Below, piece after piece: positions 6,348 to 57,307 of a DNA stretch of 64,000 nt. Source of the DNA: Candidatus Woesearchaeota archaeon (lineage in GTDB: Archaea > Nanobdellota > Nanobdellia > SCGC-AAA011-G17 > GW2011-AR18); NCBI GenBank assembly GCA_964497265.1, contig CAZCCK010000004.1, positions 606 to 64,605 on the forward strand. The letters are read 5' to 3'. The notes beneath the pieces were generated by a model. The model saw nothing but the letters and a program-made list of their open reading frames with translations, was not told the DNA's origin and ran no database searches. How positions within the stretch are numbered: the stretch's first letter is position 1; each line of letters begins with the position of its first letter. Position numbers and translations under genes: made by a program.

Positions 6348-6956
6348 ATGCCTCAATTATCTGAAGAGCAGATTAATCAAATTAAGAAGTTTGTTGAAAC
6401 TTTTCCTGAAGAGGAGAGAGAGGCAAAATTAGAAGAAATTCTTTCTCAGCTTGTTGAGGAAGATAAGAAGCCTCAAGCAGTCCAGTGTCCGTTTTGTTTG
6501 ATGGGTGAGGGGAAATTAAAAACACAAAAAGTTTTTGAGGACGAAAGGTTTCTTGCTGTGTTAGAAATTAATCCTGCAAATCCGGGGCATATCCTTGTTT
6601 TTCCAAAAAAGCATCTTGCTGATCTACACGCTCTTGAAAATAGTCTTGTTGATTTTTTACTTCTTATTCATAATCTCTCTTCAAGTTTATTGAAATTTAA
6701 TGCGGGTGTGAATGTACTTGTTTCTCTGGGTGTTCTTGCAGGTCAGAAGTTTCCGCATCTTGTAGTGCATATTCTTCCCAGAGTAGAGAAGGATGCGGTT
6801 ACACTTTCTTGGAAAGGAAAGCCGCTAAGTGAGCAAGAGTTAAATGCTTTAAGAGAAAAGATTGCTGCAGGTCTAGTAAAGAAAGAGCCTGAAAAAAAGG
6901 TAGATCCTGAGAAGTTTAAGTCAAGATTGATTAAACCTGAGAATAGAATGCCTTAG
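6348..6956 (+). CDS. HIT-family (histidine triad) hydrolase with an N-terminal extension containing CPFC
   Basis: C-terminal histidine triad PHLVVHILPR (HxHxHxx). NPANPGHILVFPKKH core. Confidence 0.65.
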   Translation: MPQLSEEQINQIKKFVETFPEEEREAKLEEILSQLVEEDKKPQAVQCPFCLMGEGKLKTQKVFEDERFLAVLEINPANPGHILVFPKKHLADLHALENSLVDFLLLIHNLSSSLLKFNAGVNVLVSLGVLAGQKFPHLVVHILPRVEKDAVTLSWKGKPLSEQELNALREKIAAGLVKKEPEKKVDPEKFKSRLIKPENRMP

Positions 6957-7942
6957 AAAAGAGAGGTGAGGTGTGTCCAGAATAAGGTTAAGAGTAGCGC
7001 GAAGAAAAATGCGGGCACGAAAGGTATTCCTTCCTTAACTAAAACTTTTTTAATACCGTGTTTTTTAAGAAGCTCGATTTGTTTTTTTTCAAGTCCTAAA
7101 TCTTTGGGAGTACAGATTGTTTTAGAACCTACTTTAACGGTATTTAGTACCCAGTCTCCTTCTGTTAATTTTTCTACGTTCATCCAAGATTGCATGCTTA
7201 TCTTTTCAACAATTTTTACAAAGAAATAGAGATTGAAAAAGAAATAAACAAAGACAATACTGATAAGAAAGAGGGTCTGATAGATTTCTGTCAGAAAGAA
7301 ACTAATGCTGAGGAGAAGGAGAAATGCTAAAAGCGCGAAGAGGAAGTAATTTCTATTTTGCTTTTTAAGTTCTTGTTTAATTCTTTTCCAGTGTTTTATG
7401 CTTAATCCTAATGTGTAGAATAATCCGTAGAGAGATCCTGCAATAAAGAGGTTAAGGATGAAGAGCGCTAAGAACGGCCAAGGAGAGGTTAATCCGCTGA
7501 TGGGAAGACCGTTTCCAAAGATTGCGCCTACGCCCATAAGGAGTTTACTGTCTCCCCCTCCCCACTGTTTTGTGTAATAAAAAAGGTTGGCGATAACAAA
7601 AGCTGCTCCGAAAGCGAGTAATCCTGTAAGAAAAGGCAAGTAGTCTTTTAAGAGAACAGACTCTAAAGCTCTACTTCCTAATCCTGCGAAGATCATACCA
7701 TAAGAAAGCCAGTCTGGAACTTCTCTTTTTTTTAGATCTGTGATGCTTGCAAGTGTTATTCCAAGAAAACCAATAATTAAGAGCAGGAATTCAATCATAG
7801 ATTCTTTTGGGTAAGAAGCCTTTTTAATGTTTAGCATTTTTCTTTTCAAATGATTTCGATTATTGGTGCGGGTCCTGCTGGTTCTTATGCCGCTTATTTG
7901 CTGGCTAAGGCTGGAAAAGAAGTTCATGTATACGAAGAACAT
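6953..7942 (-). CDS. Archaeal type IV prepilin/preflagellin peptidase (A24 family, FlaK/PibD-like); the true start is probably the internal Met near 7798
   Basis: ASITDLKKREVPDWL (first catalytic Asp motif) and QWGGGDSKLL (second Asp motif, GGGDxKL) lie within a polytopic membrane protein. The first 48 codons of the ORF are Arg/Asn-rich and non-membrane, so they are probably not translated. Confidence 0.7.
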   Translation of the reverse strand: MFFVYMNFFSSLSQQISGIRTSRTRTNNRNHLKRKMLNIKKASYPKESMIEFLLLIIGFLGITLASITDLKKREVPDWLSYGMIFAGLGSRALESVLLKDYLPFLTGLLAFGAAFVIANLFYYTKQWGGGDSKLLMGVGAIFGNGLPISGLTSPWPFLALFILNLFIAGSLYGLFYTLGLSIKHWKRIKQELKKQNRNYFLFALLAFLLLLSISFFLTEIYQTLFLISIVFVYFFFNLYFFVKIVEKISMQSWMNVEKLTEGDWVLNTVKVGSKTICTPKDLGLEKKQIELLKKHGIKKVLVKEGIPFVPAFFFALLLTLFWTHLTSLF

Positions 7943-40626: not shown

Positions 40627-40718
40627 GGGCTCATGGTCTAGTGGCTATGACACAACCTTGACGTTCTCTTCGGAGATCAAAATGGTTGTAGTCGCAGGTT
40701 CGAGTCCTGCTGGGCCCA
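40627..40718 (+). tRNA. tRNA-Val (anticodon GAC) with a canonical 37/38 intron of about 19 nt (40664-40682)
   Basis: GGGCTCA-TG-GTCTAGTGGCTATGAC-A-CAACC-TTGACG[intron ttctcttcggagatcaaaa]T-GGTTG-TAGTC-GCAGG-TTCGAGT-CCTGC-TGGGCCC-A. The intron contains the hairpin TCTC-TTCG-GAGA. Confidence 0.7.
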
Positions 40719-40763: not shown

Positions 40764-41090
40764 ATGAAAAAATCTTTACTTGCCTTAAGCCTTGTGAGTT
40801 TGCTTCAAGCCTGCCATCCAGTAAAAAATCCAGTGGTTAATTTAGAATGTGGGAATACTGCCTATCAGAAAACAGAAAAAAGAGAAGGAGAGTCTGTTTT
40901 TGATTTTGCTACTCGTTTTTGCCAAGTTTTTGGTGCTGGAAATTACAGTAGGGGCGCGTTGTGTCATCCGATATTAGCGGAAATTAATTGTAATCTAGAA
41001 AATCAAGTGAGCTCTTTTAAGATTTATGAAAGGCCAAAAGAAGTTTGTTATACTCGTCCTGAAGAAGCGTGTTATTCACTTGTTTTTTGA
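40764..41090 (+). CDS. Small Cys-rich secreted/lipoprotein-like protein
   Basis: Signal with LLQAC. Six Cys in 108 aa. Confidence 0.4.
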   Translation: MKKSLLALSLVSLLQACHPVKNPVVNLECGNTAYQKTEKREGESVFDFATRFCQVFGAGNYSRGALCHPILAEINCNLENQVSSFKIYERPKEVCYTRPEEACYSLVF

Positions 41091-41148
41091 TAAATTTTAA
41101 AGCGTAATAATCGTTATATTTATATACCATTAAAGTGGTTTTTTACGA

Positions 41149-43299
41149 ATGGGGAAAAGGGGGCAGGTAACTGTTTTCGTAGTGTTAGGTTTAATTATTC
41201 TTATTCTTGCAGGTTCATTTCTTGCGTACCGTTATTTTGTTATAAATTCTAGTTTAGAGAGTACAAGACAAGAGTTGAGTAGAGTTCCGAGTCAGTTTCA
41301 GCCTGTTGCTGCTTATTTGGATGAGTGTACCCAAACTGTGGCGAGTGATGCATTGACTTTTGTAGGTTCAAGGGCGGGATATTTTACATTGCCGACAGAC
41401 CCGCTTCCTCCTTCTTCTATTAATCCTCTGCAAAGAAATTTAGAAGTTCTTCCAAATACGGATTTGAAAGTTCCTTTGTGGTTTAGAGAATCTAGTAATG
41501 GTATTCAAGAAGTGAATGTTCCTTCAAAAGCAGATGTGGAGAAAAATCTAGCGTTGTATGTAACAACTCACTTTCCAGAGTGTCTTGACAATTTATCTTC
41601 TTTTCAAGAAGAAGGGTATCAAATAATTTCTTCAGCCACTCAAGTAAATTCAAAAGTAACTGTAACTAAAGATGCCGTGGATGTTGTTGTTTCCTTTCCG
41701 ATGCAAGTTTCTTTCAAAGGAGCTAATTTTAAGTTGGATGGTTCTCTTGCTCATGTAGAGACGCAGTTCGGAGATTTATACAATTCCGCGGTCGAGATGT
41801 TAACAACTGAAAATCAAGGATTTTTCTTAGAAAATAAAACATTAGATATGCTTGTTGCGTATGATAAGGAGGTTCCGTATTCTGGTTCTGATCTTTCTTG
41901 TTCAGAAACAGTTTGGTCAAAAACAGAAGTAATTAAAAGATTCAAAGCGATTCTTTTTGAAAATACTGCTGCGATTCATGTGGTCGGTACAGATTTTAGT
42001 TTAGATAATGAAGGTCAAAAATATTTATTGTTTGATGCTTTAAAGAGTAAGCGGTCTGATGTTTCTATAAACTTAAGATATAATCCTTCGTGGCCTACGC
42101 TTGTGGATATTAGTCCTTCGCAAGGGGATGTTTTAAGATCAGATCCTATAACCAAGAATACGGGCGGATTATTAACAACGATTTTATCTTCTTACTTTTG
42201 TTTGAACGATCATCATTTTATTTATACGATAAAATATCCTGTTTTAATTTCGTTGACAGATAAGAATGGTTTTGTGTTCCAGTATGCTACAGAGGTAATT
42301 ATTGATAGAAATCTTGCCAGAGAAAATAGGATTGTTCCCTTAGATATTCCAGATACTCGTTCTTTATTATGCGAGAATGCGGCTAGTCCTCTAACGATCA
42401 ATACCTATTCTTTGGATCAGAATGAAGAACTTGTTCCTTTGAGTGGTGCTGATGTTTCGTTTAAGTGTTTCCCTGACACGTGTCCTTTGAAGGCTGTTGG
42501 GCAGGCGGCAAATAAGATGCAAGTTCTTGCTCCTCCTTGTGTGAATGGGGTTGTAGAAGTTTCCAAAAAGAATTTTTTCAATGGTAAATCTGTTGTATCT
42601 ACGAATACAGCTGAAGTACAAAATCTCAACATTGTTCTTGAGCCTTTGTATGAGAAGCATGTTCAAGTAAAAGTAATTGATAAGAAAACTGGTGAAATAC
42701 GTGATCCGTTTAGTTCAGAATTAATCTCTTTTAGTTTCAAGCATCAGAACGCGCGGTATAATGAATACTTCACGTATCAGAGCGAAGGTGCCTCTTGTGA
42801 GTTAGAGGATACGTGTGGTCCTGGTTTAGAATGTAAGAGGGGCGCATGCGTGTATCCTAGTTGTGAATCTAAAGAAGATTGTTCTCTAAATCAAGAGTGT
42901 GTCTCTAAAAAATGCGCTCCGATTAATACGATTCATTTGCTTGCGGGTGATTATGCTGTCGAGTCTTTCGTTTCTCGTACAAGTACGTGGCCGATTCAAA
43001 CGCAAAAGAAAACGGTGCAAAACTGCGTACAGACCACTGCAGATGGAGTGTTGGGTCTTTTCTTCACAAAAGAAAAATGTTTCACGACAGAGATTCCTTC
43101 CGTTGATTTTAAGAACGCGCTTGTGGGTGGAGGGAATTTCAATGTTACATTTGAGCGTAGTGCTTTAGCTTCAAAGAACGTTTTAACGTTGTATGTTCTT
43201 GCTGATGCCACTCCTGCGGATCTAGAAGGTTTTGCTAATATTCAGACAGATTTAAGTATCAATAAAGATAATCCGAACTTTAGGTATCCTCAGCTATGA
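41149..43299 (+). CDS. Pilin-like (class III signal) large secreted protein with a C-terminal Cys-rich EGF-like module
   Basis: N-terminus MGKRGQVTVFVVLGLIILILAGSFLAY (KRG then Q at +1, followed by a hydrophobic stretch). CELEDTCGPGLECKRGACVYPSCESKEDCSLNQECVSKKCAP. The stop overlaps the next start (ATGA). Confidence 0.5.
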   Translation: MGKRGQVTVFVVLGLIILILAGSFLAYRYFVINSSLESTRQELSRVPSQFQPVAAYLDECTQTVASDALTFVGSRAGYFTLPTDPLPPSSINPLQRNLEVLPNTDLKVPLWFRESSNGIQEVNVPSKADVEKNLALYVTTHFPECLDNLSSFQEEGYQIISSATQVNSKVTVTKDAVDVVVSFPMQVSFKGANFKLDGSLAHVETQFGDLYNSAVEMLTTENQGFFLENKTLDMLVAYDKEVPYSGSDLSCSETVWSKTEVIKRFKAILFENTAAIHVVGTDFSLDNEGQKYLLFDALKSKRSDVSINLRYNPSWPTLVDISPSQGDVLRSDPITKNTGGLLTTILSSYFCLNDHHFIYTIKYPVLISLTDKNGFVFQYATEVIIDRNLARENRIVPLDIPDTRSLLCENAASPLTINTYSLDQNEELVPLSGADVSFKCFPDTCPLKAVGQAANKMQVLAPPCVNGVVEVSKKNFFNGKSVVSTNTAEVQNLNIVLEPLYEKHVQVKVIDKKTGEIRDPFSSELISFSFKHQNARYNEYFTYQSEGASCELEDTCGPGLECKRGACVYPSCESKEDCSLNQECVSKKCAPINTIHLLAGDYAVESFVSRTSTWPIQTQKKTVQNCVQTTADGVLGLFFTKEKCFTTEIPSVDFKNALVGGGNFNVTFERSALASKNVLTLYVLADATPADLEGFANIQTDLSINKDNPNFRYPQL

Positions 43300-46200
43300 A
43301 AAAAAGTAGTGTGATTGCAGTGTTTTGTATGGTTTTGATAGTGACTCTTCCTTTGGTTGTTGCTCAAAGCCAATATTCTTCCTCTTCACAAAGTCTTCTT
43401 CCAGGATATCAACCTAATGAGGTTGCTTTTTTTCAGCAGCCTTCTTCTTTGGCTGATTTGCTTGGTGGTGCTTTTAGTCAGGCTCTTGGAACTGAGCAAG
43501 ATCTTGGAGAGGCGTTAGTTATTTACGCTGCGACTCCTGATCCTCCTTTTATTCGTGCTTCTGCTTTGGAGCAGCAGCCTTTGCCGATTTACATTCCTTT
43601 GAGAGCAACTGATTTTGGTTCGATTTTAGGAAAGGTTTCTGAGGATCCTTCGCAGCGTGATCCTTTTACGGGTTTTACTTCTTTGCCTCCTGTAAAAAGA
43701 ATGGTTGTGAAGTTAAATAGGACAAATCCTTTTGTGAACACAATAAAGTATATTCCTCCTGAGTCTGGATTTTCGAAAGATAATATGGGTTATCTTGTTG
43801 TTGTTTTAAACAGGTTAAGAAATGAAACGAGTTTACCTACTGCTCGTAGTCAGCAGACAAGTGTGTTTAATAATTCTCTTCCGCAGGATGTTGTGCCTAA
43901 TTTAGGCGCAGATACTCCTGTGATTGACTTGGATTTGACTGCTGAGATTTATTTGAATTTGCAAGAGAGTTCTTTGACAAATTTAGGTCAGAGGGATCTT
44001 GTTTTAAAACCAGAATCAGAAAATGATTTTTTGAAAAAATCTTCTAAAGAGGAGAATGCGTTTTATAATGATCGTGCGTATGTACGCGCTTCTGCGATTG
44101 GTCAAGATAGGGTTACGTTAAATGTTTATAATAAGGATTTGTTGCCTTTGACCTTTTTTTCTGCGCCAAATGCTCCTGCTGGATCAAAGGTTGCTTCTGT
44201 CTCCTTAACCACCAATCAAGTATCTAGTCCTGTAAGACTAGGTATTAGTTCCAATCCGTTGCAAGATAGTGTTGTGTTTAAATTAAACAATGTTGTGCTT
44301 CCGGCAAATAGTGTTTCTTATCAATTAAGTACGTCTTCTCAAACATTTGAAAGGGAAGCGAATGAAGGTTCCTTCTTGTATCCTGGTTCTCATTGGCAGA
44401 TTATAAGTGTTAAAAAAAATGAAAGAGACGCGACTGCTGAGCAAGTGAGAAAGCAAGGTTTTACTCTAGATAGTGCTTCGCGTAAAAAGGTAGAGCAAGC
44501 TCAGCCGGGTGATATTAAGATTGTTTCTTATCAAGTATTTTTGAAAAATAGCGCTACCGGTGAGTCTCGTTCTTTGGAAAGAGAGGTGGTTACAGGTAGT
44601 ACGTTTAATTTTGATTTTCCTCCTCTTGATGACGCGACTGCGTTAGCGTTAGAAGAGATGTATTGTCCTTCAGCGTTACAAAAGACTGCCAATGAAGATT
44701 ATGGGTGTGCTGCTGTAAGAAGCTTTAAGCAAGTGATTAATGATTACCCCGCGAGCGCTGAGGCGAAAAGTGCGTATGGGCAATTAGTTGATGTGTACGA
44801 TAATGATCTAATTAGTAATCCTGCTTGTAAGGTTATTGGTAAAGATCAAGTTTTAGATGAGGATAAATGTAGTTTGTTTTTGGATGATATGTTTTCGCTT
44901 GCGTATTATTATGCGTCGAAAGTGAAGGTTTCTAATCCTGTTTTATTGCAAAAGTTAAGAGATGGATTTGGGGGAAAAGGTGGTTTTGAGTTTTTGGAAG
45001 ATGAAGGTATTGGTTTTCAAGTAAAAAATGTAAAAATTGCGACAAATGATGATAAGGGCAAGTTTTCTCTTTCTGTGAATAGAAATCCTCTGGTTATGTT
45101 GCAAGTGGGTAATACTATTCCAAATTTGGTGGGAACGACAACGAAAGGAGATTTGTTTAAGTTTATTGTGCGTCAGATTAATCAGAATTCTGTTTTGGTG
45201 GAGAAAAAGAAAGTTGCGGATATTAATCTGCCTGTTGATGAAAAGAGTGTTTCTTTTGGTTCTTTAACTTTAATTTCTGGTCAGAATAATGTTTTATTAA
45301 AAAAAGGTGAAGAAAATCAGCAAGATGAAAATGTTTTATTAGATATTGGTTCTATTGAAGTAAATACGAGGGCTTCTATCTCTATTATTCCTGGTGCGAA
45401 TCGAGGATTAGCTCGTTCTTCGTTTAGAGTGCATATTCCTATTGAGCCTCGTCCTTTTCCAAATCTTGGTGAAACGTTGAAAGGTCATATTAATGCGACA
45501 AGAAAATTGGTTGCGGATCTTGATTCTGTAATTACAAAGATGGATACAGTGGTAAAGTCTTGGAAGAAATTATGTATTATTACCTTTGCTTTTGTAACCT
45601 TGAAAAGTTCGTTTTTAGGTGGAACAACAAGAACGCTCGCAAGAAGAGGTGTTGCTCAAGTCTACAAAAAGGATTGTGCTACTCAAGTAGCTGCGACTAA
45701 ATTTAGAAGTGTTGATGATTGTCTTGCAAGCAGAACAGATGAGTTAAGTAAGGATGTTGATGCGAATCAAAAAGCGATTGAGGCTGTACAGAGTCAGCTT
45801 AGCAAAGAGACCCCTGATCATCTGAAGATGTGCGGAGATGTTCCTTTCCAAGAGGCGCGTTTACTTGGAGCAACAATTCAAGATTGCCAAGAGTATTTAC
45901 GTTTGAAAGCTTTAAAATCTGAGCAAACGAGTGATTTGTTAAAAATAGAAGCAGACAAAAGTTTAACTGATTTAAAGTTTGAGCAGAAGAAAGATCTTAT
46001 TAGTCAAGCTTCGAAAGCTTATGAAGATAATAAAGATAAGTTGCCTTTCAAAGGAGATGACGCTGCTCAAAAAGGTATGCAGTATTACGCGAATTTGTTT
46101 GAGCAGGAGCAGCAAAAGAAGACGCCGATTCGTGAAGATGTGATTAATGTGCCTTCTTTGATTCCAAATGGAAAAGATACTGCTATTGCTATTCTAAATC

Positions 46201-48578
46201 CGGTCTTTGATCCTCAGACAAAGCAAATAAATCCTGATTCTATTAAGCCTACTGAGCTTAAACAGATTACTCAGTTGCAGTTTAAGATTTATGATGAAGG
46301 CGCTGATGAGGTTGTTAAGCAGGCAACAGTAAATTGTCTGCAAAATGTGAATTCGCAAGTCGCAGCTAAAAATACTCCTGCATACACGTTGCCTTGTGTT
46401 CAGAAGAGGTTGAACGCGTTAAATGTTCCTGATCCTTCTGGTTTGTATGTTAACCCAGTTTTTATTGGTGCTGCGAATCAGATAAGTGCGGATGCTGCTG
46501 TTGCGAGTGCTTTAAGTAATTATAAGGATCAGTTGTTAGTTGATCAAGGAAGTCTAGCAAAGAAAGGCGCTTTACCAAAGGCAAGTTTGTTTAAAGTTTA
46601 TTCTTCTCCGATTGTTCCTCGTGGAAACGAATTGAAGAGTTTAGATTATGCTTATTTACAAGAAGGCGCAACTCCAGGCGGTCTTGTCGCGCAATATAAT
46701 CCTGAGTCTGGAAAAACATTCTGTTATCCTACTGGTAAAAACGGAGAGTATATTTTAGTCTTGGAAAGATATCCTGAGAATGGAAGAGTGAGAACGTTTA
46801 GAGCGATGAATGTTGGGTTGAATGGGGTGATGGAGTGTGGTGGCTCTGGTGATGATGTTCTTGCGGATAAGGGAGACGAGTCTACGCTAAACTTACCTGA
46901 AAATGCGAAGTTAAAGAATGATTACCTTTCTATTGTTGAGCGTGCTCCTACATGCAAGAAAGATGGGGATCAAGCTGGTTTTGTTTTTAATACTAAGGGA
47001 AATAAGATTCCTGTTGTTTGTAGTATGAAGCAGTCTTTATTGAACGCTGCGTTGAGTAATCCTAAGTGTGTGGATGTAATGGAGCCTGAAGATTGTAAGA
47101 TTTTGTTTAATGTGTGTGATCCTGTGATGTGCCCTGCTTCTAGGTGTAATTTAGGTGGAAGGTATCAAGTTCCGGATGTCATCCAGTCTGGTATTGTTGG
47201 TTCTTTATTCTTGTGCGCTCCAAATATTAAGCAGGGTGTTGTTGTTCCAGTATGTTTGACTGGTGTGCTTGCCGGTTTAAAGAATATTAAGAGTTTGCTT
47301 GAAAGTTATGCTGATTGTTTGGAAGCGAATTTGAAAGATGGAAAGAATGTCGGCTTCTGCGATTATATTAGGAGTGTTGGTGTGTGTGAGTTAGTTTGGA
47401 GAGAGTCAACAAGTTTACTTGGAATTAAAGGTGGAGTGATTGATTACTTGTCGGATAAAGTCTTTTCTGAGCCTGAAGGTGGAGCAGAGTATTTAACGTT
47501 CCAGAATTCGTTGCAAAACGTTGGTTCTTCGTTTAATTATTTTACGACTGAATATTCGAATACGTACGTTGCCGCACTGAAAGGTTCTTCTACTGCTGAG
47601 GTTGGTTCTCAGATTTGTAGGCTTGGAGTGTATGGCAGGTTGCCTACTGCTGGTGAAGTGTTAGATAAATTATCTGAGCCTGAAGATCCCCCTCAATTCT
47701 TTGCGTTGTTAGATGAAGCTCCGTATACGCAGACTGTTGGCGAGTCTCCTCTTGCGCTAAATGTTCCTGCGAGTGCTAAAGAGCTTTCATTGTATAAAGT
47801 GTTTTATCATATCTATGCTGGAACTGGCTATGCGCAAGATCAAGCTGTTTTTGCAGAGCCGTTGAATCCTGCGACAAATCAGCCAAATAAAGCTGTAACG
47901 TACTCTGTTGTTTTAAGAAATAGGGAAGCGGGGTTACCAGATGTGTACATGACTTCGGAAGGAGAGTTTTTACAGAATCAAGCGACGATTGCGCGCGGTC
48001 AGTACGCTCAAAAAACAGTACAAAAGGTGGCGGTTCCTGGTTATAATGAGGTGTGTATTGTTTTGAATGGTAAGGAAGCGTGTGGTTTTGGAAAAGTAAG
48101 TTCTTCTTTTTCTTTGAATTATTTGAATGATCGTCTTGTTGAGTCTGATAGTAAGAAAAAGATTACTTCTAGCGAGCAGTGTGTTCCAAATGTTCCGACA
48201 AGTGGGGTTGCTTTAGGTAGTTTAGCTACCCCTGAGAAGTATGGTGTTACCAGTACGGGAATAAGTAGGGTTTGTAATCCTACGCCTCCGACAGCTGATC
48301 TTTCTAGATGGGCAGATGTAGGTTCTTGTGGAAAGGATAAGAATGGGATTGATCGTGGAACATGTTGGCTTGATAAAAATTCTGTGCGCGTTCAAGATCT
48401 TGAGGCAAAGAAAGAGATTAATGTTGCTTTGAAACAATCTGGTTTAGCTGAAAGTGAAAAATCAAAAGTTCTTTCTAGTGAGGACAGTGTAAAGAAGTTG
48501 TCTGAATTAAATACAAAGAGAGATAGCATTCTTGCTCAGTTGAGAGCTGCAGTGCAAAGATTGGCAGGTGCTCTATGA
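43296..48578 (+). CDS. Giant (1760 aa) secreted protein of unknown function
   Basis: Signal peptide MKKSSVIAVFCMVLIVTLPLVVAQS. Continuous ORF with no recognisable catalytic motif. Cys-rich segment near aa 1230-1330. Start and stop overlap the neighbouring genes. Confidence 0.55.
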   Translation: MKKSSVIAVFCMVLIVTLPLVVAQSQYSSSSQSLLPGYQPNEVAFFQQPSSLADLLGGAFSQALGTEQDLGEALVIYAATPDPPFIRASALEQQPLPIYIPLRATDFGSILGKVSEDPSQRDPFTGFTSLPPVKRMVVKLNRTNPFVNTIKYIPPESGFSKDNMGYLVVVLNRLRNETSLPTARSQQTSVFNNSLPQDVVPNLGADTPVIDLDLTAEIYLNLQESSLTNLGQRDLVLKPESENDFLKKSSKEENAFYNDRAYVRASAIGQDRVTLNVYNKDLLPLTFFSAPNAPAGSKVASVSLTTNQVSSPVRLGISSNPLQDSVVFKLNNVVLPANSVSYQLSTSSQTFEREANEGSFLYPGSHWQIISVKKNERDATAEQVRKQGFTLDSASRKKVEQAQPGDIKIVSYQVFLKNSATGESRSLEREVVTGSTFNFDFPPLDDATALALEEMYCPSALQKTANEDYGCAAVRSFKQVINDYPASAEAKSAYGQLVDVYDNDLISNPACKVIGKDQVLDEDKCSLFLDDMFSLAYYYASKVKVSNPVLLQKLRDGFGGKGGFEFLEDEGIGFQVKNVKIATNDDKGKFSLSVNRNPLVMLQVGNTIPNLVGTTTKGDLFKFIVRQINQNSVLVEKKKVADINLPVDEKSVSFGSLTLISGQNNVLLKKGEENQQDENVLLDIGSIEVNTRASISIIPGANRGLARSSFRVHIPIEPRPFPNLGETLKGHINATRKLVADLDSVITKMDTVVKSWKKLCIITFAFVTLKSSFLGGTTRTLARRGVAQVYKKDCATQVAATKFRSVDDCLASRTDELSKDVDANQKAIEAVQSQLSKETPDHLKMCGDVPFQEARLLGATIQDCQEYLRLKALKSEQTSDLLKIEADKSLTDLKFEQKKDLISQASKAYEDNKDKLPFKGDDAAQKGMQYYANLFEQEQQKKTPIREDVINVPSLIPNGKDTAIAILNPVFDPQTKQINPDSIKPTELKQITQLQFKIYDEGADEVVKQATVNCLQNVNSQVAAKNTPAYTLPCVQKRLNALNVPDPSGLYVNPVFIGAANQISADAAVASALSNYKDQLLVDQGSLAKKGALPKASLFKVYSSPIVPRGNELKSLDYAYLQEGATPGGLVAQYNPESGKTFCYPTGKNGEYILVLERYPENGRVRTFRAMNVGLNGVMECGGSGDDVLADKGDESTLNLPENAKLKNDYLSIVERAPTCKKDGDQAGFVFNTKGNKIPVVCSMKQSLLNAALSNPKCVDVMEPEDCKILFNVCDPVMCPASRCNLGGRYQVPDVIQSGIVGSLFLCAPNIKQGVVVPVCLTGVLAGLKNIKSLLESYADCLEANLKDGKNVGFCDYIRSVGVCELVWRESTSLLGIKGGVIDYLSDKVFSEPEGGAEYLTFQNSLQNVGSSFNYFTTEYSNTYVAALKGSSTAEVGSQICRLGVYGRLPTAGEVLDKLSEPEDPPQFFALLDEAPYTQTVGESPLALNVPASAKELSLYKVFYHIYAGTGYAQDQAVFAEPLNPATNQPNKAVTYSVVLRNREAGLPDVYMTSEGEFLQNQATIARGQYAQKTVQKVAVPGYNEVCIVLNGKEACGFGKVSSSFSLNYLNDRLVESDSKKKITSSEQCVPNVPTSGVALGSLATPEKYGVTSTGISRVCNPTPPTADLSRWADVGSCGKDKNGIDRGTCWLDKNSVRVQDLEAKKEINVALKQSGLAESEKSKVLSSEDSVKKLSELNTKRDSILAQLRAAVQRLAGAL

Positions 48579-51500
48579 AGAAAGCAGTTTTACCTTTAAT
48601 ATTCCTTCTTTTTATTTCTCTTGTAGTTGCTCAGTCTGATATTTGTGATAAACAGAATGTGAAGTGTTTAGAGAAAGATCCTGCGAGTGTTACATTAATT
48701 AATGATTTTCGTTCTTTAGAGTATGGTCAACTTGCTACGTTTTCTAGTGATAATGATGTTTCTGCTAAAGCGTTGTACGATCAAGCTTCTGGTTTTAAGG
48801 ACATTGCTCTTTTGAAAAGGCAGTATGAAGGTGTTGTTCACTCTAATAAGAAAGTAAGCCAAGTATTAAACGCTTTTTCTGAGAATGTTTTAAGCGCTCA
48901 TAAAGATTCTTCAGGTAATATAAGATTTGATTTTTTTGTCTCTTCTGCTGATGCTGCAACGTATGTCCTTAATTGGAATAATCAGGTGGTTGCGCAGGCG
49001 ACAGAGAACGATCTTCAAGGGAACAGTATTGTTTTTCTAGTAAGTGCTGACGAATTGCAAAAGGCAGGTGTAACAAGTCTCGATATTTCTGAATTTTCTA
49101 AGTTTAGTGTTTCAAAGGGAGATGAGCAAGGAAAGGTGTTTGCTCGTTATGGGGTGAGTAGTGTTTCTGTTCCTTCTCCTTTAATTTCTGCGGCTACGGT
49201 GGATCGTATTCCTGCAGATTCAATAAGTATTGGCTACGATCCTGCCAAACTTGCTCTTGAGATAAGCATTGCTCCTAATCAAGTCGGTTCAACAGCTCAT
49301 TTGTTAATTGATGATCAGGATATTCAGCTTAATGGTGGGATTGGTGTTGATGGGAAGTTTAAGGCAAAGGTGGACCTTTCCTATCCGAATCAGATAAAAT
49401 TAAAAGATGCGTTAATGAAAGATAGTTCTTTACTTTTCAGTGCGAAAATTAAGACAACTGACGCAACATTTACTCCTTCCGAGATTTATGTTACTGCTCC
49501 TAGACTTTTAGAATCGTCTGGAGTGATTCCTGTTGTTATTGCTCCTACTCCGCCTACAGCGCCTGAAAAGAAAGTGCAAGCTGAGCAAGTAGGGATTATT
49601 GATTTGACAAATACTGAAGAGTTAAAGCAGCAAGCAATTACAGCTTGTGCTCAAGAAGCTTTGGGAATTGAGTTAAGTAAACCCAATTCGAAACAGGTGG
49701 AAGTTATTCAGCAAAGAATGACGTCTGTTCAACCAGGTGCTTCTGATACGTTGGTTAATTTAGTTCGATCTGCTACAAATGATCCTTCAGAGCAGGTAAC
49801 TTTAGCAGGTATTATGTCCAAAGAGTCGCTAGCGAAGGTCGATATTGGTGACAGTTCTGCTGGAGCGCGTGGAGTGATGCAGTTTATTTCTCTTTCTGCT
49901 GTTGAGATGAAAGTTCCCTATAAGGATTCGTATGGCGATCGTTGTGCGAACAAAGCTGCTGCAAAAGTTACTGGACAGTGCGCATTATGTCTTCCTTCTG
50001 GATGTAATAATGGTGATGCTCGAAAGCAGCCGGATATAGAGATTGCTTCAGCGAATGTATTATTACAACAAAAGAAAAAAAGTTTACAAAAATGTATTAA
50101 AGATAGTACTCAAGGAAAGAATATTGTTGTTCCTCCAGAGGATTTATTTAAGTTTACCATTGCTGCTTACAATAGGGGTGAAGGAAATATTTGTCATGAT
50201 ATTGAACGGGTAATTAGTCAAGGTTCTCAAAAAGATGCTTCAAAAGTAACCTGGGAAGATGTTGCGGCCTTGCAATTATTTCCAAGTCAGACACGTTGTT
50301 ATGTTCCTGCAGTAATCTTTTTTATGTCTGCGCATAGAAATTTATTTAATGTAGAAACTATTGGTGTTTCAAAAGAAACTGTATCCACTCAGTTAGGATG
50401 TGCTGATTGTGGTTTAGATAACCAATGCAGTGCAGATGATTGTCGTCAAAGAGGGTGTATTGTTGTTTCTAAGATTATTGGTTCTTCTTGTGCAGATAAG
50501 CCTGCGGAGGTGGTTACTCCAACACCAAATCAAGATCCTTGTAATGCTTGTGGAAAAGAGTGGACTGCTTTTTGTAATAAAAAGAATTGTGATGAAATTA
50601 AGAGTTTGTTAGAATCTCAAGGAATCGGATCTTGCACATATACGCCTGGAGTAGTTGATAGTATTTTTGGTGGTTCTTGTTCTTCAGCTGTAACAGCAAA
50701 TCCTTTAGTGGGTGGTTGTACGAATGTGGACCGATCGAAAAAGATCTTTCCGCTCAGAAGTGTGCAGGTAACTTCTTGTTATGGAAAACGGATTTTAAAG
50801 GGAAGTGAGCAATGGCATCCGGGTATTGATTTTAATGCGCCTATAGGAACAGATGTTTTGGCGGTTGATGAGGGCACGGTTTCAAAGATTTGTGTGGGTA
50901 GTGCTAAGACTGATTGTGGTGGTTACGGGTACTATGTGAGAATCAAGCACCCTGATGGAAGTATTAGTCAATATAATCATCTTTCGCAGTCCTCAGTTTC
51001 TAACGGAGAAAATGTCAAACAAGGACAGGTTATTGCAAAAAGTGGAAATACGGGCGATGTTACAGGTCCCCATTTACATTTCAATATTTATTGTAGTGAA
51101 CAGGATCTAAATGCGGGTCAGGATTATAAGTTAGATCCATTTTATTATTTACCTGACATTCCTTTAGCGAAAATTAATCAAAATGCGTGTAGGCTTTCTC
51201 CGATCTTTAATCAGATTTACGCGGTTAATCCTCAATCTCCGCAAGTTTTAGCAGCGCAGCCTCTTGCAAATGAACCAAGTGATGACGCTCATCCTGCTGA
51301 TTTGAATGTAGAAATTCATCCTCAAGAAGTATATTTAGTGTGGTCTGAAGGAGAGTTCGAACCTCCAACGCTCGTGCCACAGTTAACAAGTAAGCCGGTT
51401 GTAGGTACAAGATATTTAGCTGATGCTTCTGATGGTTTTTATGTTGAGCAAGTTTCAAAAGACGGAATTTCGCTTTCGTTGTTTTCTACAGATGAGCAGG

Positions 51501-52219
51501 GTGTGGTCAATCAGGTACAGCCTTTAGCTTTTGCTAATCTGGTAAAAGCTTCTTTGAATGGTGCAGAATATGATTTTGTTCCTGTTGAGGAAAATAAGTT
51601 GTATGTGCAGCCAGAGGTAAAGCATGTGTTTGTTGCGAGTACTATTGAGCCTGGTTTTCCAGTGAGAGTAGTTGATCTAACTCAGAATTCAAAGATTACT
51701 GGCGCTGTTATTACTGAGCATTCTGAAAAAGATATTCCGGAAGTATTTGTATTTAAGCATGGAGAATCAAGAGAGGTAAATGCGATTAATTATGTTGTGT
51801 TGCATCATACTGGCACGTTTAGTGCTCAAGATACGATGAAAGTGCTCTCAAAGAGAGGGCTTTCTGTGCATTATGTTTTGGATAAGGATGGCGCTTTATA
51901 CCGACTTGTTCCAGAAGAGGAAATCGCGTGGCATGCAGCTGGAAGAAATGCTGATTCTATTGGTATTGAGATTGTGAATACGGGTAATGCTGAGGATAAG
52001 TATACGCAAGAGCAGTATAGGGTGATTAGTGTTCTTTTAGATTATTGGGCAAAGACGTATCCGAATTTTAAGAAAGATAATGAGCATGTGTTAGCGCATT
52101 ATGAGGTTTCTAGTCAGAAGTGGGATCCTTCTCCTAATTTTGATTGGAGTCAGATTGGGTTAGAAGGGCACGCTTTGGCGAGTTCTGATCAAGTTCCAAA
52201 AGGGGCAGGGTATGCATAA
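48575..52219 (+). CDS. Secreted multi-domain peptidoglycan hydrolase: SLT lytic transglycosylase, M23 (LytM) endopeptidase and Amidase_2/PGRP N-acetylmuramoyl-L-alanine amidase
   Basis: Signal peptide. SLT motif SKESLAKVDIGDSSAGARGVMQF (about 49800). M23 motifs HPGIDFNAPIGTDVLAVDEGTV, GYGYYVRIKHPDGSISQYNHLS and TGDVTGPHLHFNIY (about 50800-51160). Amidase_2 INYVVLHHTG...GLSVHYVLDKDGALYRLVPEEEIAWHAAGRNADSIGIEIVNTG...DPSPNFDW (about 51700-52150). Confidence 0.75.
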   Translation: MKKAVLPLIFLLFISLVVAQSDICDKQNVKCLEKDPASVTLINDFRSLEYGQLATFSSDNDVSAKALYDQASGFKDIALLKRQYEGVVHSNKKVSQVLNAFSENVLSAHKDSSGNIRFDFFVSSADAATYVLNWNNQVVAQATENDLQGNSIVFLVSADELQKAGVTSLDISEFSKFSVSKGDEQGKVFARYGVSSVSVPSPLISAATVDRIPADSISIGYDPAKLALEISIAPNQVGSTAHLLIDDQDIQLNGGIGVDGKFKAKVDLSYPNQIKLKDALMKDSSLLFSAKIKTTDATFTPSEIYVTAPRLLESSGVIPVVIAPTPPTAPEKKVQAEQVGIIDLTNTEELKQQAITACAQEALGIELSKPNSKQVEVIQQRMTSVQPGASDTLVNLVRSATNDPSEQVTLAGIMSKESLAKVDIGDSSAGARGVMQFISLSAVEMKVPYKDSYGDRCANKAAAKVTGQCALCLPSGCNNGDARKQPDIEIASANVLLQQKKKSLQKCIKDSTQGKNIVVPPEDLFKFTIAAYNRGEGNICHDIERVISQGSQKDASKVTWEDVAALQLFPSQTRCYVPAVIFFMSAHRNLFNVETIGVSKETVSTQLGCADCGLDNQCSADDCRQRGCIVVSKIIGSSCADKPAEVVTPTPNQDPCNACGKEWTAFCNKKNCDEIKSLLESQGIGSCTYTPGVVDSIFGGSCSSAVTANPLVGGCTNVDRSKKIFPLRSVQVTSCYGKRILKGSEQWHPGIDFNAPIGTDVLAVDEGTVSKICVGSAKTDCGGYGYYVRIKHPDGSISQYNHLSQSSVSNGENVKQGQVIAKSGNTGDVTGPHLHFNIYCSEQDLNAGQDYKLDPFYYLPDIPLAKINQNACRLSPIFNQIYAVNPQSPQVLAAQPLANEPSDDAHPADLNVEIHPQEVYLVWSEGEFEPPTLVPQLTSKPVVGTRYLADASDGFYVEQVSKDGISLSLFSTDEQGVVNQVQPLAFANLVKASLNGAEYDFVPVEENKLYVQPEVKHVFVASTIEPGFPVRVVDLTQNSKITGAVITEHSEKDIPEVFVFKHGESREVNAINYVVLHHTGTFSAQDTMKVLSKRGLSVHYVLDKDGALYRLVPEEEIAWHAAGRNADSIGIEIVNTGNAEDKYTQEQYRVISVLLDYWAKTYPNFKKDNEHVLAHYEVSSQKWDPSPNFDWSQIGLEGHALASSDQVPKGAGYA

Positions 52220-52940
52220 GAATTTTATTCTAGATCTTATTTTTACGGTTTTATTGATTTCTCTTCTTATTTTTGTAAGAACAGAATCTAAAAGTTATTT
52301 TCAGCAAGTTCAGGGCTTTTCAGAAGATATTGCACATATTGAGAATGGGCTGTCTTCGAATGAGTTTACAGAGCAAGATACGTTAAACGCAGACCAAACG
52401 TTAACAAGTTTGAATAAGATCTTAACAAAATCTATTTTTTTAAATGTTCTTCTTCTACCTTTAGTTATTTTTTTGTTGTGGGTTGTCTTTCAAGGTCTGA
52501 TTTGGAGGTCTTTAACAAAGATGAGCTTAAGCAAATTTGCTTTAATTTCAATTATTCCAGTAGTTCTTTTCTTTTCTTTAATTTTATATTTTTTAGAATA
52601 TGTTTCTTTTGTTTTTTTTAAAGATACAACTGCTTCTTTAGTGGTTCTAATCTTAATGGTTCTCTTATTATTCATTGTCAATTATTTTTATTTAATCCTT
52701 GTTTTAAAACCAAATCTAAAAATGAAAGAAATTTTTAAAATAGCTAAGACTAAATTCTCTAAATTAATTGTTCCTTATTTAATTTTAAGTCTAACTGCCT
52801 TTATCTATTTAATTTTAGGCGTTTTAATTTTTATTTTTAGTTATGTTGGTACTTCTTTCATCATTCCGGCTTTACTTTTAGCGCTTCTTTTAATTCTCTT
52901 GCAGTACGAAAGAAAGTGGTTGCTTAAGCTAGCTTTTTAA
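52212..52940 (+). CDS. Polytopic membrane protein (about 6 TM) ending the giant-protein operon
   Basis: The start overlaps the previous stop. Mostly hydrophobic helices. Confidence 0.45.
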   Translation: MHKNFILDLIFTVLLISLLIFVRTESKSYFQQVQGFSEDIAHIENGLSSNEFTEQDTLNADQTLTSLNKILTKSIFLNVLLLPLVIFLLWVVFQGLIWRSLTKMSLSKFALISIIPVVLFFSLILYFLEYVSFVFFKDTTASLVVLILMVLLLFIVNYFYLILVLKPNLKMKEIFKIAKTKFSKLIVPYLILSLTAFIYLILGVLIFIFSYVGTSFIIPALLLALLLILLQYERKWLLKLAF

Positions 52941-52991: not shown

Positions 52992-53204
52992 ATGGAGATA
53001 GAAAGTAAAATCAGAAAGTGGGGAAATTCGTACGGGGTAATCCTTCCAAAGCAGTTTCTCGAATCAGAACACTTGCAAGAGGAAGATGTAGTAAAGATTA
53101 ATGTTACTGCTAAAAAAGCGGATATTGCTAAACTCCGAGGGTTATGGAAGTTTAAGCGTCCAATTAAAGAAATCATGAAAGAAATCAAGGAAGGATATGA
53201 GTAG
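52992..53204 (+). CDS. AbrB/MazE/SpoVT-type antitoxin (VapB-like)
   Basis: KIRKWGNSYGVILPKQFLE looped-hinge-helix motif. 70 aa. Its stop abuts the next start. Confidence 0.6.
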   Translation: MEIESKIRKWGNSYGVILPKQFLESEHLQEEDVVKINVTAKKADIAKLRGLWKFKRPIKEIMKEIKEGYE

Positions 53205-53584
53205 TGTCCGAATTTTTTTATGATAGTTATGCGATTATAGAATTTATAAATAATAATCCTAGATTTGTCCGCTACTTTACTGAAAATGGGGGTGTGACTA
53301 CGTTATACAATGTCTTAGAAGTTTATTATGCGATTATAAAAGAAGGTGGTGCTCATGAAGCAAAGAAAGTGCTGGAGTTATTAAGGCCGATAATTGTATA
53401 TCCTGATATAAGTTATGTTGAAGAGTCTATGAAGTTTAGGTTGGAGAATAAAGAAAAAAAGTTATCCTACGCTGATTGTTTGGGGTATATAATCGCTAAA
53501 AGGAAGAAAATAAAATTTCTTACTGGAGATGAGGGGTTTAGACATTTAGCCAACGTGGAATTTGTTAAGGCAAATGAGATCTAA
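53204..53584 (+). CDS. PIN-domain toxin (VapC-like)
   Basis: N-terminal FFYDSYAIIE (first Asp), SYADCLGYIIA and LTGDEGF acidic residues. 126 aa, paired with the AbrB-like gene. Confidence 0.55.
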   Translation: MSEFFYDSYAIIEFINNNPRFVRYFTENGGVTTLYNVLEVYYAIIKEGGAHEAKKVLELLRPIIVYPDISYVEESMKFRLENKEKKLSYADCLGYIIAKRKKIKFLTGDEGFRHLANVEFVKANEI

Positions 53585-56318: not shown

Positions 56319-56726
56319 TTAGGGTTCTTTTTTTATGTGTTTTTTTACTGCTTCGAGTGTGGGGTTGAAGCAGGCTTGGCTGAATGAGATGATGTCTTCT
56401 ACTTCTGCTAGTGTGGGTGCGTATCCGTAGTAGTTGATGTTGTGTCGTAGTCTTCGTAAGTTTTCGAGGAGTTGGAGTGGTCGTGTGGTGTTTATTTTTA
56501 GTTTGAAAAGTTCGTTGATTGCTTCGATGTGGTCGTGTGCTTCTTTGCCTTCAGAGATGAGGAGTGCGTCTCCGAGCATGCGGAAGGATTCGTAGATGTT
56601 TCTTATGATTGTTGCTGCTGATTGTTCGTTTATTTGGAGGGTGAGTGTGAAGGTCATGTCTCTGTGTGCTGCTTCGATGATGCTCAGGGCGTTTTTTTGG
56701 TCTGGTCTTTTGTAGCGTTGGATCAT
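56319..56726 (-). CDS. HEPN-domain protein (toxin partner of the MNT gene)
   Basis: Rx4HxxxY motif RRLRHNINYYGY. 135 aa. Overlaps the upstream MNT gene stop. Confidence 0.5.
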   Translation of the reverse strand: MIQRYKRPDQKNALSIIEAAHRDMTFTLTLQINEQSAATIIRNIYESFRMLGDALLISEGKEAHDHIEAINELFKLKINTTRPLQLLENLRRLRHNINYYGYAPTLAEVEDIISFSQACFNPTLEAVKKHIKKEP

Positions 56727-57307
56727 GGTCGTACTTCGAGGAGTCCTTCTAAGAGTATTCCATTAGCGATGTTGGTGAAGAGGTTTAAGTCTATTTTGTT
56801 TCTTGAGAAGATGTGTACGTTGACTGGTATGTTTTTTCTGTAGCTGAATTGTTGGAGTATTCCCAATGGGTGGATGATGAGGTCTTTATTATTCAGTGTT
56901 TCTACTGCGATGTCAATATCGCTTGTGTCTATGTCGTCTCCTTTTCTGTAGCTTCCGAAAAGGATGATTGCTCTGCTGCTTGGGATTATTTTGTGGATTT
57001 CTTCTAAGATTCCTGATTCGTAGATTCTTGTGAGGTTGTGTCCTATTTTTTTGGTGATGTTGTAAGTGTGTTTTTGGTTGCAGGAGATTTGCCAGAGTTT
57101 ACCTAGGGATTTTTGGATAAGGAAACCTTCTTGCGTGAGTTGTGTGACGATCCTATTGGCTGTAGTTTTGGAGATTTGGAGTTGTTTAGCTAGGTCGCTT
57201 AGACTGATTTCTCTTGTTGGGTAAGAAAAAAACCAGTTTAAGGTTTTATTATAAGCATCTGTAAGTTCTTGTTCTGGAGGGGAGCGTATTTTATGATCTT
57301 TCTTCAT
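56723..57307 (-). CDS. Minimal nucleotidyltransferase (MNT) with an N-terminal HTH
   Basis: AIILFGSYRKGDDIDTSDIDIAV (GS..D.D polymerase-beta motif). The N-terminus LSDLAKQLQISKTTANRIVTQLTQEGFL is an HTH. Confidence 0.55.
   Translation of the reverse strand: MKKDHKIRSPPEQELTDAYNKTLNWFFSYPTREISLSDLAKQLQISKTTANRIVTQLTQEGFLIQKSLGKLWQISCNQKHTYNITKKIGHNLTRIYESGILEEIHKIIPSSRAIILFGSYRKGDDIDTSDIDIAVETLNNKDLIIHPLGILQQFSYRKNIPVNVHIFSRNKIDLNLFTNIANGILLEGLLEVRP

Follow-up and report, generated by a model that had tools for sequence, protein, structure and literature searches.

A secreted three-domain peptidoglycan hydrolase predicted to occupy a variable slot in a surface-protein operon of Woesearchaeota and Pacearchaeota

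Here, we analyse a gene for a secreted protein with three predicted murein-cleaving domains in a 64,000-nucleotide stretch of DNA from a Candidatus Woesearchaeota archaeon (GenBank assembly GCA_964497265.1, contig CAZCCK010000004.1, positions 606 to 64,605 of the forward strand; hereafter the window, to which coordinates refer unless a related locus is named). Comparison with related loci indicates that this hydrolase is the exchangeable enzymatic part of a conserved surface-protein operon that spans the lineage. We suggest, with somewhat better than even likelihood, that it is a contact-dependent, surface-held enzymatic “head” acting on the wall of a bacterial partner. Archaeal peptidoglycan hydrolysis as a general phenomenon is already published; new here are the operon context, the variable slot and the domain order SLT-M23-Amidase_2. 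A first-pass annotation of the window, made from the sequence letters, had recognised the three domains but missed the role of the gene as the variable cargo subunit of a lineage-wide operon.

Results

The hydrolase is secreted and carries three catalytic domains

The gene and the parts of its product are the following:

48575..52219, + strand: slot gene, secreted tri-catalytic peptidoglycan hydrolase of 1214 aa with an ATG start and three Pfam families
48575..48634, + strand: Sec-type signal peptide, aa 1-20, ending in VVA before QSD, read from the sequence
48671..48892, + strand: conserved N-terminal (NT) module, aa 33-106, common to slot proteins and proposed as a docking module
48893..49609, + strand: region aa 107-345, without a match in the Pfam scan
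49631..50392, + strand: SLT/GH23 lytic transglycosylase domain, aa 353-606, from Pfam, a lineage profile against the PDB, AlphaFold2 and Foldseek
50393..50725, + strand: Cys-rich linker, aa 607-717, defined by the positions of its 12 Cys
50726..51190, + strand: Peptidase_M23 domain (LytM-type Zn endopeptidase), aa 718-872, from Pfam, NCBIfam and a match to zoocin A (1e-18)
51221..51664, + strand: “mid” module, aa 883-1030, from homology to the slot protein of locus L014
51740..52204, + strand: Amidase_2 domain (N-acetylmuramoyl-L-alanine amidase, AmpD/PGRP type), aa 1056-1210, from Pfam and a match to AmpDh2 (5e-11)

The N-terminus, MKKAVLPLIFLLFISLVVA followed by QSD, is a typical Sec signal, and a hydropathy scan of the whole protein found no second hydrophobic segment outside the signal peptide. 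The hydrolase is thus predicted to be secreted without a membrane anchor.

The SLT domain required the most scrutiny. Its Pfam match (PF01464; aa 404-548, E 2e-4) reaches 21.4 bits against a gathering cut-off of 21.3 and is borderline if taken alone; the score is low because a stretch of ~95 aa with a Cys-rich insertion separates the GVMQ and AYNRG motifs. The domain carries E417-S418, G433-V-M-Q436, A531-Y-N-R-G535 and Y576, i.e. the classic family-1 set of ES, GLMQ, AYNxG and a downstream Tyr. In an alignment of 16 SLT segments from the same lineage, E417, G433 and Q436 are invariant, while S418, Y532-N533-x-G535 and Y576 are nearly invariant. When compared with the PDB, the lineage SLT profile matched MltC (2.6e-25) and Slt70 (3.5e-20) as well as MltE, MltF, goose-type lysozymes and T7 gp16, and E417-S418 aligned with the ES of MltC, placing the catalytic Glu in an E-S motif. 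We modelled aa 346-610 with AlphaFold2 and 12 homologues; the model has a predicted TM-score (pTM) of 0.77 and a per-residue confidence (pLDDT) >85 in the core, with low confidence confined to the Cys-rich insertion (~aa 447-478). In a Foldseek search of the PDB with this model, the best 30 matches were all lytic transglycosylases with a probability of 1.00 each, and the TM-score was up to 0.65 (normalised to MltE), in line with a lysozyme-like alpha-helical fold. By motifs, profile and predicted fold, we classify the domain as a family-1 lytic transglycosylase.

The other two domains are recognised with ease. Peptidase_M23 (PF01551) matches aa 748-846 with an E of 1.3e-27 and 96 bits against a cut-off of 28.7, and H748, D752, H802, H833 and H835 align with zoocin A, TagE and other M23 structures, such that the Zn ligands (HxxxD, HxH) and both catalytic His are present. 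Among the NCBIfam models, the M23-type models MepM, ShyA/ShyC and Pgp3 match the hydrolase, and the domain is about equally close to MepM/ShyA-type and zoocin-type enzymes. Amidase_2 (PF01510) matches aa 1069-1187 with an E of 4e-27 and 96 bits against a cut-off of 26, the NCBIfam AmpD model also matches this region, and the Zn ligands H1077, H1175 and D1184 together with the catalytic E1132 and K1182 align with AmpDh2. Judged from these alignments, all catalytic and metal-binding residues of the three murein-cleaving families are intact. By contrast, Pfam found no recognised cell-wall-binding domain (LysM, SH3b, PG_binding, SPOR or similar) in the protein, even at E up to 1, and targeting must therefore come from elsewhere. 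Thus, the first-pass annotation was correct in reading a secreted 1214-aa protein with SLT, M23 and Amidase_2 signatures: Pfam recovers the three families, the SLT Glu, the M23 His/Asp and the amidase Zn ligands align in the lineage alignment, with zoocin A and with AmpDh2, respectively, the structure prediction that it had proposed, run here for the SLT domain, gave a lytic transglycosylase fold, and the Sec signal is the sole hydrophobic segment.

The hydrolase gene occupies a variable slot in a conserved operon

In the sub-lineage of the window, a separate gene, which we refer to as the slot gene, lies between the gene for a giant protein and that for a membrane protein. The other genes of the operon and its putative promoter are:

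41119..41126, + strand: TATA-like box TTTATATA, putative operon promoter, beginning 30 nt upstream of the p716 start codon
41149..43299, + strand: 716-aa protein (p716) with a class III (type IV pilin-like) signal, MGKRG followed by QVTVFVVLGLIILILAG, directly upstream of the giant
43296..48578, + strand: giant 1760-aa secreted Cys-rich protein (p1760), the stop of which overlaps the hydrolase start
52212..52940, + strand: 242-aa multi-pass membrane protein (p242), end of the operon

The genes are tightly joined: start and stop codons overlap as ATGA at 43296 and at 48575, and the hydrolase and p242 genes share 8 nt at 52212.

We compared the window with 166 related loci, which were not de-replicated. 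A Sec signal is present in every positional orthologue of the hydrolase. These slot proteins align with the window hydrolase over just 4-34 % of its length, and what they keep is the NT module. This module of ~75 aa has the motif Y..L...S.D..V.A.A.Y..A.G[FY]K.IA.L[KR]R.YEG and is found in 29 open reading frames (ORFs) across the 166 loci, independently of the cargo that follows; a word-indexed homologue search with the NT-module alignment gave zero matches. A census of the cargo with locally built hidden Markov models (HMMs; E up to 1e-5), in loci that include some duplicates, gave the following arrangements:

SLT only: L004, L014
M23 then SLT: L008
SLT and Peptidase_M15_4: L015
SLT and DUF2272: L010, in a gene cut by the contig end
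SLT and Amidase_2: L001
Amidase_2 only: L016, L020
Endonuclease/exonuclease/phosphatase (EEP) domain: L021 5603-8932 / L095
Weak Hydrolase_2 match under the Pfam cut-off: L009
Nothing recognisable: L011, L017, L018, L019
No slot gene after the giant: L006

The arrangement NT-SLT-M23-Amidase_2 was found in the window alone. In other words, the locus is fixed and the N-terminal module constant while the C-terminal enzymatic cargo differs, as in polymorphic effectors. The EEP cargo raises the possibility that the slot may also deliver other types of effectors, e.g. a nuclease or a phospholipase/sphingomyelinase-like enzyme. The gene immediately downstream does not co-vary with the cargo as an immunity gene would; this p242 gene is conserved whatever the cargo, with orthologues in the same position that are 27-41 % identical and aligned over 80-98 %. 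The polymorphism of the cargo suggests an arms-race or host-range determinant.

In other loci, the enzymes are part of the giant itself. An SLT domain lies inside 33 giant ORFs, in 20 of them at the C-terminus and in 13 inserted near aa 350-600, the giant of L093 ends in Amidase_2, and in L007 the giant core is followed, in the same protein, by a clear NT module and a 295-aa tail. By the Rosetta-stone argument, these fusions are evidence that giant and hydrolase modules function as one unit. They also bear on the proposal that the hydrolase is a freely diffusible antibacterial weapon of the bacteriocin or lysostaphin kind that lyses competitors at a distance, with its operon position reflecting co-expression only. 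Such a weapon would be secreted without an anchor, as the hydrolase is, its best solved M23 match, zoocin A, is a weaponised hydrolase, archaeal M23 hydrolases kill bacteria (PMC12352652), and patchy, fast-changing cargo suits an arms race. However, wall-binding domains of a recognised kind, absent here, are usual in weaponised hydrolases of the Gram-positive type (PMC12352652), tethering is favoured by the conservation of the NT module and by the fusions with a giant surface protein, the translational coupling is tight, and the outer membrane of diderm bacteria would block a free enzyme. We therefore consider a free weapon rather unlikely and prefer a hydrolase held at the archaeal surface.

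The remaining parts of the hydrolase are poorly conserved. Residues 107-345 gave partial BLASTP alignments with the closest relatives, extending to aa 198 for L010 and to aa 324 for L087, and the stricter phmmer/HMM search of the related loci found no homologue of this region. The Cys-rich linker has no homologue in the related loci. Among these loci, the “mid” module matches only the slot protein of L014, in which it occurs twice in tandem, and is a candidate lineage-specific targeting or binding module. A CoA_binding_2 match at aa 983-1070, largely inside the “mid” module, has 21.1 bits, which is below the cut-off, and we judged it spurious.

A giant protein and a pilin-like protein are regular partners of the slot

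Relatives of the giant are 32-54 % identical over 98-100 % of its length. Searched with the giant profile, GTDB species-representative genomes gave 530 related stretches, and metagenomes gave at least 371. For the 80 of the 530 loci that were kept, 79 titles read Woesearchaeota, Pacearchaeota, Nanoarchaeia, Nanoarchaeota or “archaeon” and one reads Paceibacterota. Under the title “Candidatus Paceibacterota bacterium”, i.e. a member of the bacterial candidate phyla radiation (CPR), L081 (DAOTCN010000002.1) encodes a 2209-aa relative of the archaeal giant; this is probably a mis-binned or mislabelled Pacearchaeota contig, the alternative being cross-domain transfer of the gene.

In 120 of 121 assessable loci, a relative of p716 directly precedes the giant. 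The N-terminal pattern [KR][GA]Q[VILA..] followed by ~20 hydrophobic residues is present in 105 of the 124 complete members of the p716 family and in 12 of 530 control ORFs, and we take it to correspond to the class III signal known from archaellins and archaeal type IV pilins. We conclude that the p716 family (~600-700 aa) represents unusually large proteins of a predicted type IV pilin-like kind. A candidate processing enzyme for p716 is encoded 33 kb upstream:

6953..7942, - strand: A24 prepilin peptidase (Pfam Peptidase_A24, 5.8e-13)

The hydropathy profile of p242 has seven hydrophobic segments, including one at the N-terminus. Neither the operon nor its flanks contain ATPase or type IV secretion Pfam families.

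This composition of the operon is relevant for the idea that the hydrolase serves nutrient scavenging, in which wall debris (necromass) would be digested to amino sugars and peptides in the absence of a specific partner. The reduced metabolism of DPANN archaea and a published “recycling” role (PMC9723730) fit with this idea, and three complementary activities would reduce peptidoglycan to small fragments. Yet, genes for transporters or for muropeptide catabolism are missing from the operon, a simple digestive enzyme would not be expected to have a giant surface protein and a pilin-like protein as obligate partners, and rapid turnover of cargo is unusual for a catabolic enzyme. On balance, scavenging appears improbable, and we retain contact-dependent action at the wall of a partner as the preferred explanation.

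The gene is native to an archaeal genome

The contig was also examined for its origin, using these features in addition to the protein-coding genes around the operon:

35523-35583, + strand: tRNA of 61 nt, unusually short (Rfam)
40627-40718, + strand: tRNA of 92 nt (Rfam)
58808-58964, - strand: tRNA of 157 nt (Rfam)
63006-63953: TFIIB/TFB, archaeal marker

Upstream of the operon are archaeal genes for ribosomal proteins S3Ae and S15 (with the S13/S15 N-terminal domain), SRP54, FtsY, TruD, an eRF1-type factor and the A24 prepilin peptidase, and downstream are those for L37e, LSm, S8e and TFB. An independent Woesearchaeota metagenome-assembled genome (MAG), L001 (GCA_964395935.1), repeats the order giant, hydrolase, ~250-aa membrane protein, toxin-antitoxin pair, L37e, LSm, S8e and TFB, and L006 shares parts of the same neighbourhood; L37e and LSm were identified by eye in the window and agree with the Pfam-annotated syntenic genes in L001. 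The lengths of two of the three tRNAs (92 and 157 nt) are consistent with introns, and ARAGORN recovers one of the three Rfam tRNAs, with its anticodon unnamed.

The composition of the gene points in the same direction. Its third-position usage (T at ~0.49, C at ~0.06) equals that of the other + strand genes. GC skew is positive (0.14-0.47) in all 2-kb bins of the window (1-64000) whatever the orientation of the genes, with C at ~3-9 % of third positions in + strand genes and G at ~5-8 % in - strand genes. The hydrolase gene, with a C content at third positions like that of its + strand neighbours, therefore shares the strand-wide compositional signature. This asymmetry brings to mind a Microgenomates genome for which a disparity between the strands has been reported (PMC7143001).

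We searched 1.84 billion representative proteins exhaustively with HMMER (E up to 0.001) and aligned the best 150 of 98,149 matches to the hydrolase. No homologue over its full length emerged; nearly all of these 150 matches span a single M23 or Amidase_2 domain, and a word-indexed homologue search with the full protein likewise gave single-domain matches only. The closest amidase matches are from DPANN archaea: the positional orthologue in L001 is 55 % identical, and an amidase from Nanoarchaeia 53 %. For the M23 domain, there is no relative above ~52 % identity among the same 150 matches, and the nearest relatives include a bacterial BlaR1-type M56-M23 protein and two-domain hydrolases with a glycosidase and M23.

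These data can be set against the suspicion that we are dealing with an artefact or a foreign element, i.e. a chimeric contig, bacterial contamination, or a recent phage or conjugative lysin. In line with it, the M23 and amidase domains have matches among PHROG endolysin and tape-measure families, and some of the nearest M23 relatives are bacterial. By contrast, archaeal genes lie on both sides in the order of independent Woesearchaeota MAGs, codon usage and strand skew are identical to those of the neighbours, the best M23 identity is as low as 52 % and the best amidase matches are from DPANN archaea. Moreover, a search of 2.9 million viral contigs (IMG/VR) with the giant profile found no relatives of the operon; an origin from a virus or prophage was rejected since, in addition, the operon neighbours have no PHROG matches and the flanking genes are housekeeping genes. 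Because the archaeal flanks are combined with synteny to Woesearchaeota MAGs, chimerism, contamination and recent transfer are effectively excluded, and we give them almost no credence. We conclude from gene content and order that the hydrolase gene is native to a Woesearchaeota/Nanoarchaeia (DPANN) archaeon. The first-pass annotation had likewise argued for an archaeal host and against contamination or recent transfer: the TFB, LSm and A24 prepilin peptidase genes that it had named as markers are there, as are tRNA lengths consistent with introns, T-rich third positions like those of the neighbours and real start/stop overlaps, and the synteny and the limited M23 identity extend its argument.

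With respect to the history of the hydrolase, the simplest scenario compatible with these alignments would be an ancestral NT-SLT(-Amidase_2) protein that later acquired an M23 cassette together with the Cys-rich linker. The gain of the M23 cassette is not recent. A common source of the M23 domains in the window and in L008 was considered and is unsupported, as the two are 39 % identical and L008 ranks 14 among the matches.

Discussion

A model for contact-dependent action on a bacterial wall

Bacterial murein is most plausibly the target of the hydrolase. We suggest the following model. After export, the hydrolase would dock by its NT module onto a complex of the giant and the pilin-like protein at the surface of the archaeon. 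At the contact between archaeon and bacterium, the SLT domain would cut the bonds between N-acetylmuramic acid (MurNAc) and N-acetylglucosamine, M23 would cut the peptide cross-links, and Amidase_2 would strip the stem peptides from MurNAc. Jointly, the three activities could breach the sacculus locally, for attachment, for access to the host membrane or for release of muropeptides. The wall of a bacterial partner as the substrate, docking by the NT module and dependence on contact are each steps that we infer. The first-pass annotation had pictured an enzyme able to dismantle bacterial sacculi completely and to serve as a weapon or as a tool for attachment or feeding; use against a bacterial partner stands as the best reading, while complete dismantling and any choice among these three purposes overstate the case.

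A broader and more tentative proposal, which we regard as possible and rather less than probable, is that the four-gene operon represents an undescribed machine, found across Woesearchaeota and Pacearchaeota, that breaches bacterial walls on contact and is the basis of a cross-domain episymbiosis or predation by archaea on bacteria. In this proposal, the enzymatic head would be a polymorphic cassette tuned to the wall chemistry of the host, and the window would hold the most complete, three-enzyme version.

Several observations weigh against the model of a docked hydrolase. To our knowledge, no host is known for any Woesearchaeote or Pacearchaeote. Docking by the NT module is suggested by the conservation of the module and by one clear fusion. 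p242-like genes follow the giant in just 57 of 150 loci, directly in 34 and with one gene in between in 22, for which the limited sensitivity of the HMM may be the explanation. Some of the related loci from GTDB and from metagenomes are identical in sequence. An AlphaFold2 model of the conserved C-terminal 631 aa of the giant, from a 6-sequence alignment, is poor (mean pLDDT 47, pTM 0.29). Finally, murein-synthesis genes were looked for, and not found, within the 64 kb of the window, a limited part of the genome.

The last observation is of importance for the alternative of a self-directed autolysin, with which the archaeon would remodel a murein-like wall of its own. Bacterial enzymes with SLT, M23 and Amidase_2 domains are, according to their NCBIfam names, mostly housekeeping wall remodellers, which would agree with such a function. 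Against it are the lack of murein-synthesis genes in the window, the view that such enzymes are foreign to archaeal envelopes (PMC8204110), and the presence or absence of the slot gene and the swapping of its cargo among close relatives (none in L006, EEP in L021), which is unlike a housekeeping gene. An autolysin is thus very unlikely, and the wall of a bacterial partner remains our preferred substrate.

Comparison with known systems

The first-pass annotation had treated murein hydrolysis by an archaeon as unprecedented. It is not. Woesearchaeota and Pacearchaeota with small genomes typically have large extracellular SLT proteins, up to 3000 aa long, for which binding or degradation of bacterial walls has been proposed (PMC8204110). 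GH23 genes have been described in “vampiristic” Woesearchaeota MAGs (Vigneron et al. 2022, PMC9723730) and in DPANN archaea of oxygen-deficient zones (PMC10936187). According to Strock et al. 2025 (PMC12352652), in a study centred on M23 homologues of zoocin A, modular peptidoglycan hydrolases are encoded in nearly 5 % of archaeal genomes, and archaeal hydrolases kill bacteria.

The window hydrolase shares lineage, secretion, the SLT/GH23 domain and the proposed role with the SLT proteins of Woesearchaeota and Pacearchaeota (Castelle 2021, fam00969), and with 1214 aa, a signal peptide and an SLT domain it fits the class of large extracellular SLT proteins. The fusions of giant and SLT in related loci, which are 2000-3741 aa long, also fit the published description “up to 3,000 aa” and are likely the equivalents of fam00969. 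Unlike in the published large SLT proteins, the SLT domain of the window lies outside the giant and is encoded, with M23 and Amidase_2, by a gene of its own that is translationally coupled. In the literature searched, we found no mention of the order SLT-M23-Amidase_2, the four-gene operon, the NT module or the polymorphism of the cargo, including split and fused SLT.

The hydrolases of Strock et al. 2025 resemble that of the window in being archaeon-encoded, secreted M23 proteins with conserved catalytic residues, in their patchy distribution and shuffled domains, and in the enrichment of Nanoarchaeota; the example Woldo consists of M23 and two PG_binding_1 domains. However, the window protein has no recognised wall-binding domain, has three catalytic domains rather than one, and is encoded chromosomally in a conserved operon, whereas the published set is plasmid-biased. 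The definition used in that study asks for at least one catalytic and at least one recognised wall-binding domain. The window hydrolase lacks the latter and would, therefore, have been missed in that census.

Certain bacterial and phage proteins combine similar domains. PrgK of the Enterococcus plasmid pCF10 has the composition LytM-SLT-CHAP. Like the window hydrolase, it joins several murein-cleaving domains, including SLT and M23/LytM, is encoded in an operon for an envelope machine and would breach peptidoglycan locally; unlike it, PrgK acts on the wall of its own producer, has CHAP in place of Amidase_2 and is encoded in an operon with a VirB4 ATPase. No VirB4-type ATPase or other type IV secretion component accompanies the hydrolase gene of the window, as would be expected alongside a VirB1-like enzyme. 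Phage lysins may also join M23 to an amidase or to a glycosidase in a single polypeptide, and PHROG endolysin families match the window protein; phi29 gp13, for instance, consists of a lysozyme-like domain and M23. By contrast, they are phage-encoded and 300-500 aa long with a binding domain, while the window protein has 1214 aa and three catalytic domains and is cellular. A phage endolysin of this kind is Ply2638A, with the order M23-amidase-SH3b (PMC12203907), whereas PrgK and other VirB1-like hydrolases function in type IV secretion of monoderm bacteria (cited in PMC12102498). An episymbiotic Saccharibacterium requires homologues of a peptidase and a lysozyme for epibiotic growth (reported in PMC12102498).

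The arrangement at the slot brings to mind the polymorphic toxin systems. As laid out, reportedly, by Zhang and Aravind in 2012 and by Makarova in 2019, these have a conserved N-terminal delivery part and a variable C-terminal enzymatic tip. The slot proteins share with such effectors the conserved N-terminal module, hypervariable C-terminal cargo, the fixed slot and occasional fusion to a large protein. They differ in that there is no adjacent immunity gene, that the cargo is mostly wall hydrolases and not nucleases or deaminases, and that no known marker of a secretion system is present. An immunity gene would be unneeded because the producer, if it lacks murein, has no target.

Within the DPANN archaea, a second, unrelated family has the same three domains in the reverse order, Amidase_2-M23-SLT, in proteins of 1100-1275 aa (P0074, P0106, P0142, P0125 and P0051, the last annotated as “Candidatus Aenigmarchaeota archaeon”, MBI5060839.1). 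Genes for such proteins are located as follows:

L168: 2739-6566
L002: 6849-10496
L167: 10001-13303
L169: 6491-10246

These genes end co-directional runs of ORFs without Pfam matches, and the SLT domain is weak or absent in some of them; the one in L168 adjoins genes for Hef-like, PriL, Toprim and L3 proteins, and P0074 those for Hef-like, PriL and L3. The family differs from the window protein in domain order, in the lack of the NT module and in its operon, and the domains are 31-41 % identical where measured (P0074, L002). From these differences, we conclude that it represents an independent assembly of the same toolkit. A search for multi-domain architectures in related archaea, which the first-pass annotation had advised, thus had a positive outcome, and the combination of three activities is predicted not to be unique to the window.

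Implications

A life of Woesearchaeota and Pacearchaeota on bacteria is currently argued mainly from the presence of SLT domains. We know of no Woesearchaeote or Pacearchaeote that has been cultured. The hydrolase offers a compact handle with three separable active sites, the bond specificities of which could reveal the wall chemotype of the partner, and the operon with its docking-type module and pilin-like partner is testable for interaction and localisation. More generally, censuses that require a known wall-binding domain undercount archaeal peptidoglycan hydrolases, and multi-catalytic lysins are of interest as enzybiotics.

Additional observations in the window

Upstream of the operon, a 974-aa secreted protein (37561-40485, - strand) combines an fn3 domain with a SASA-like (sialate O-acetylesterase/SGNH) region, and its aa 402-767 match PHROG 4201 “tail fiber protein” (2.5e-89). 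O-acetylated MurNAc blocks lytic transglycosylases, and a carbohydrate de-O-acetylase beside a lytic transglycosylase would be suggestive. Between the tRNA and the operon, a 108-aa Cys-rich protein (40764-41090, + strand) has 7 Cys and a lipobox-like LLQAC. Since relatives of these two proteins are absent from all 166 related loci, we did not count either as a member of the operon.

Directly downstream of the operon, a MazE/AbrB-type antitoxin and a PIN toxin are encoded (52992-53584, + strand); at the equivalent position, L001 has an RHH-PIN pair. Further downstream (56319-57307, - strand), a nucleotidyltransferase with a wHTH domain is followed by a 135-aa ORF without a Pfam match, which, guessing from position only, may be a HEPN-like partner of the nucleotidyltransferase. 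Finally, the window encodes a stand-alone protein with a class III adenylate/guanylate cyclase domain (36624-37301, + strand) and a MASE1-HisKA-HATPase sensor kinase (4504-6240, - strand), i.e. signalling genes of a bacterial type in a DPANN contig.

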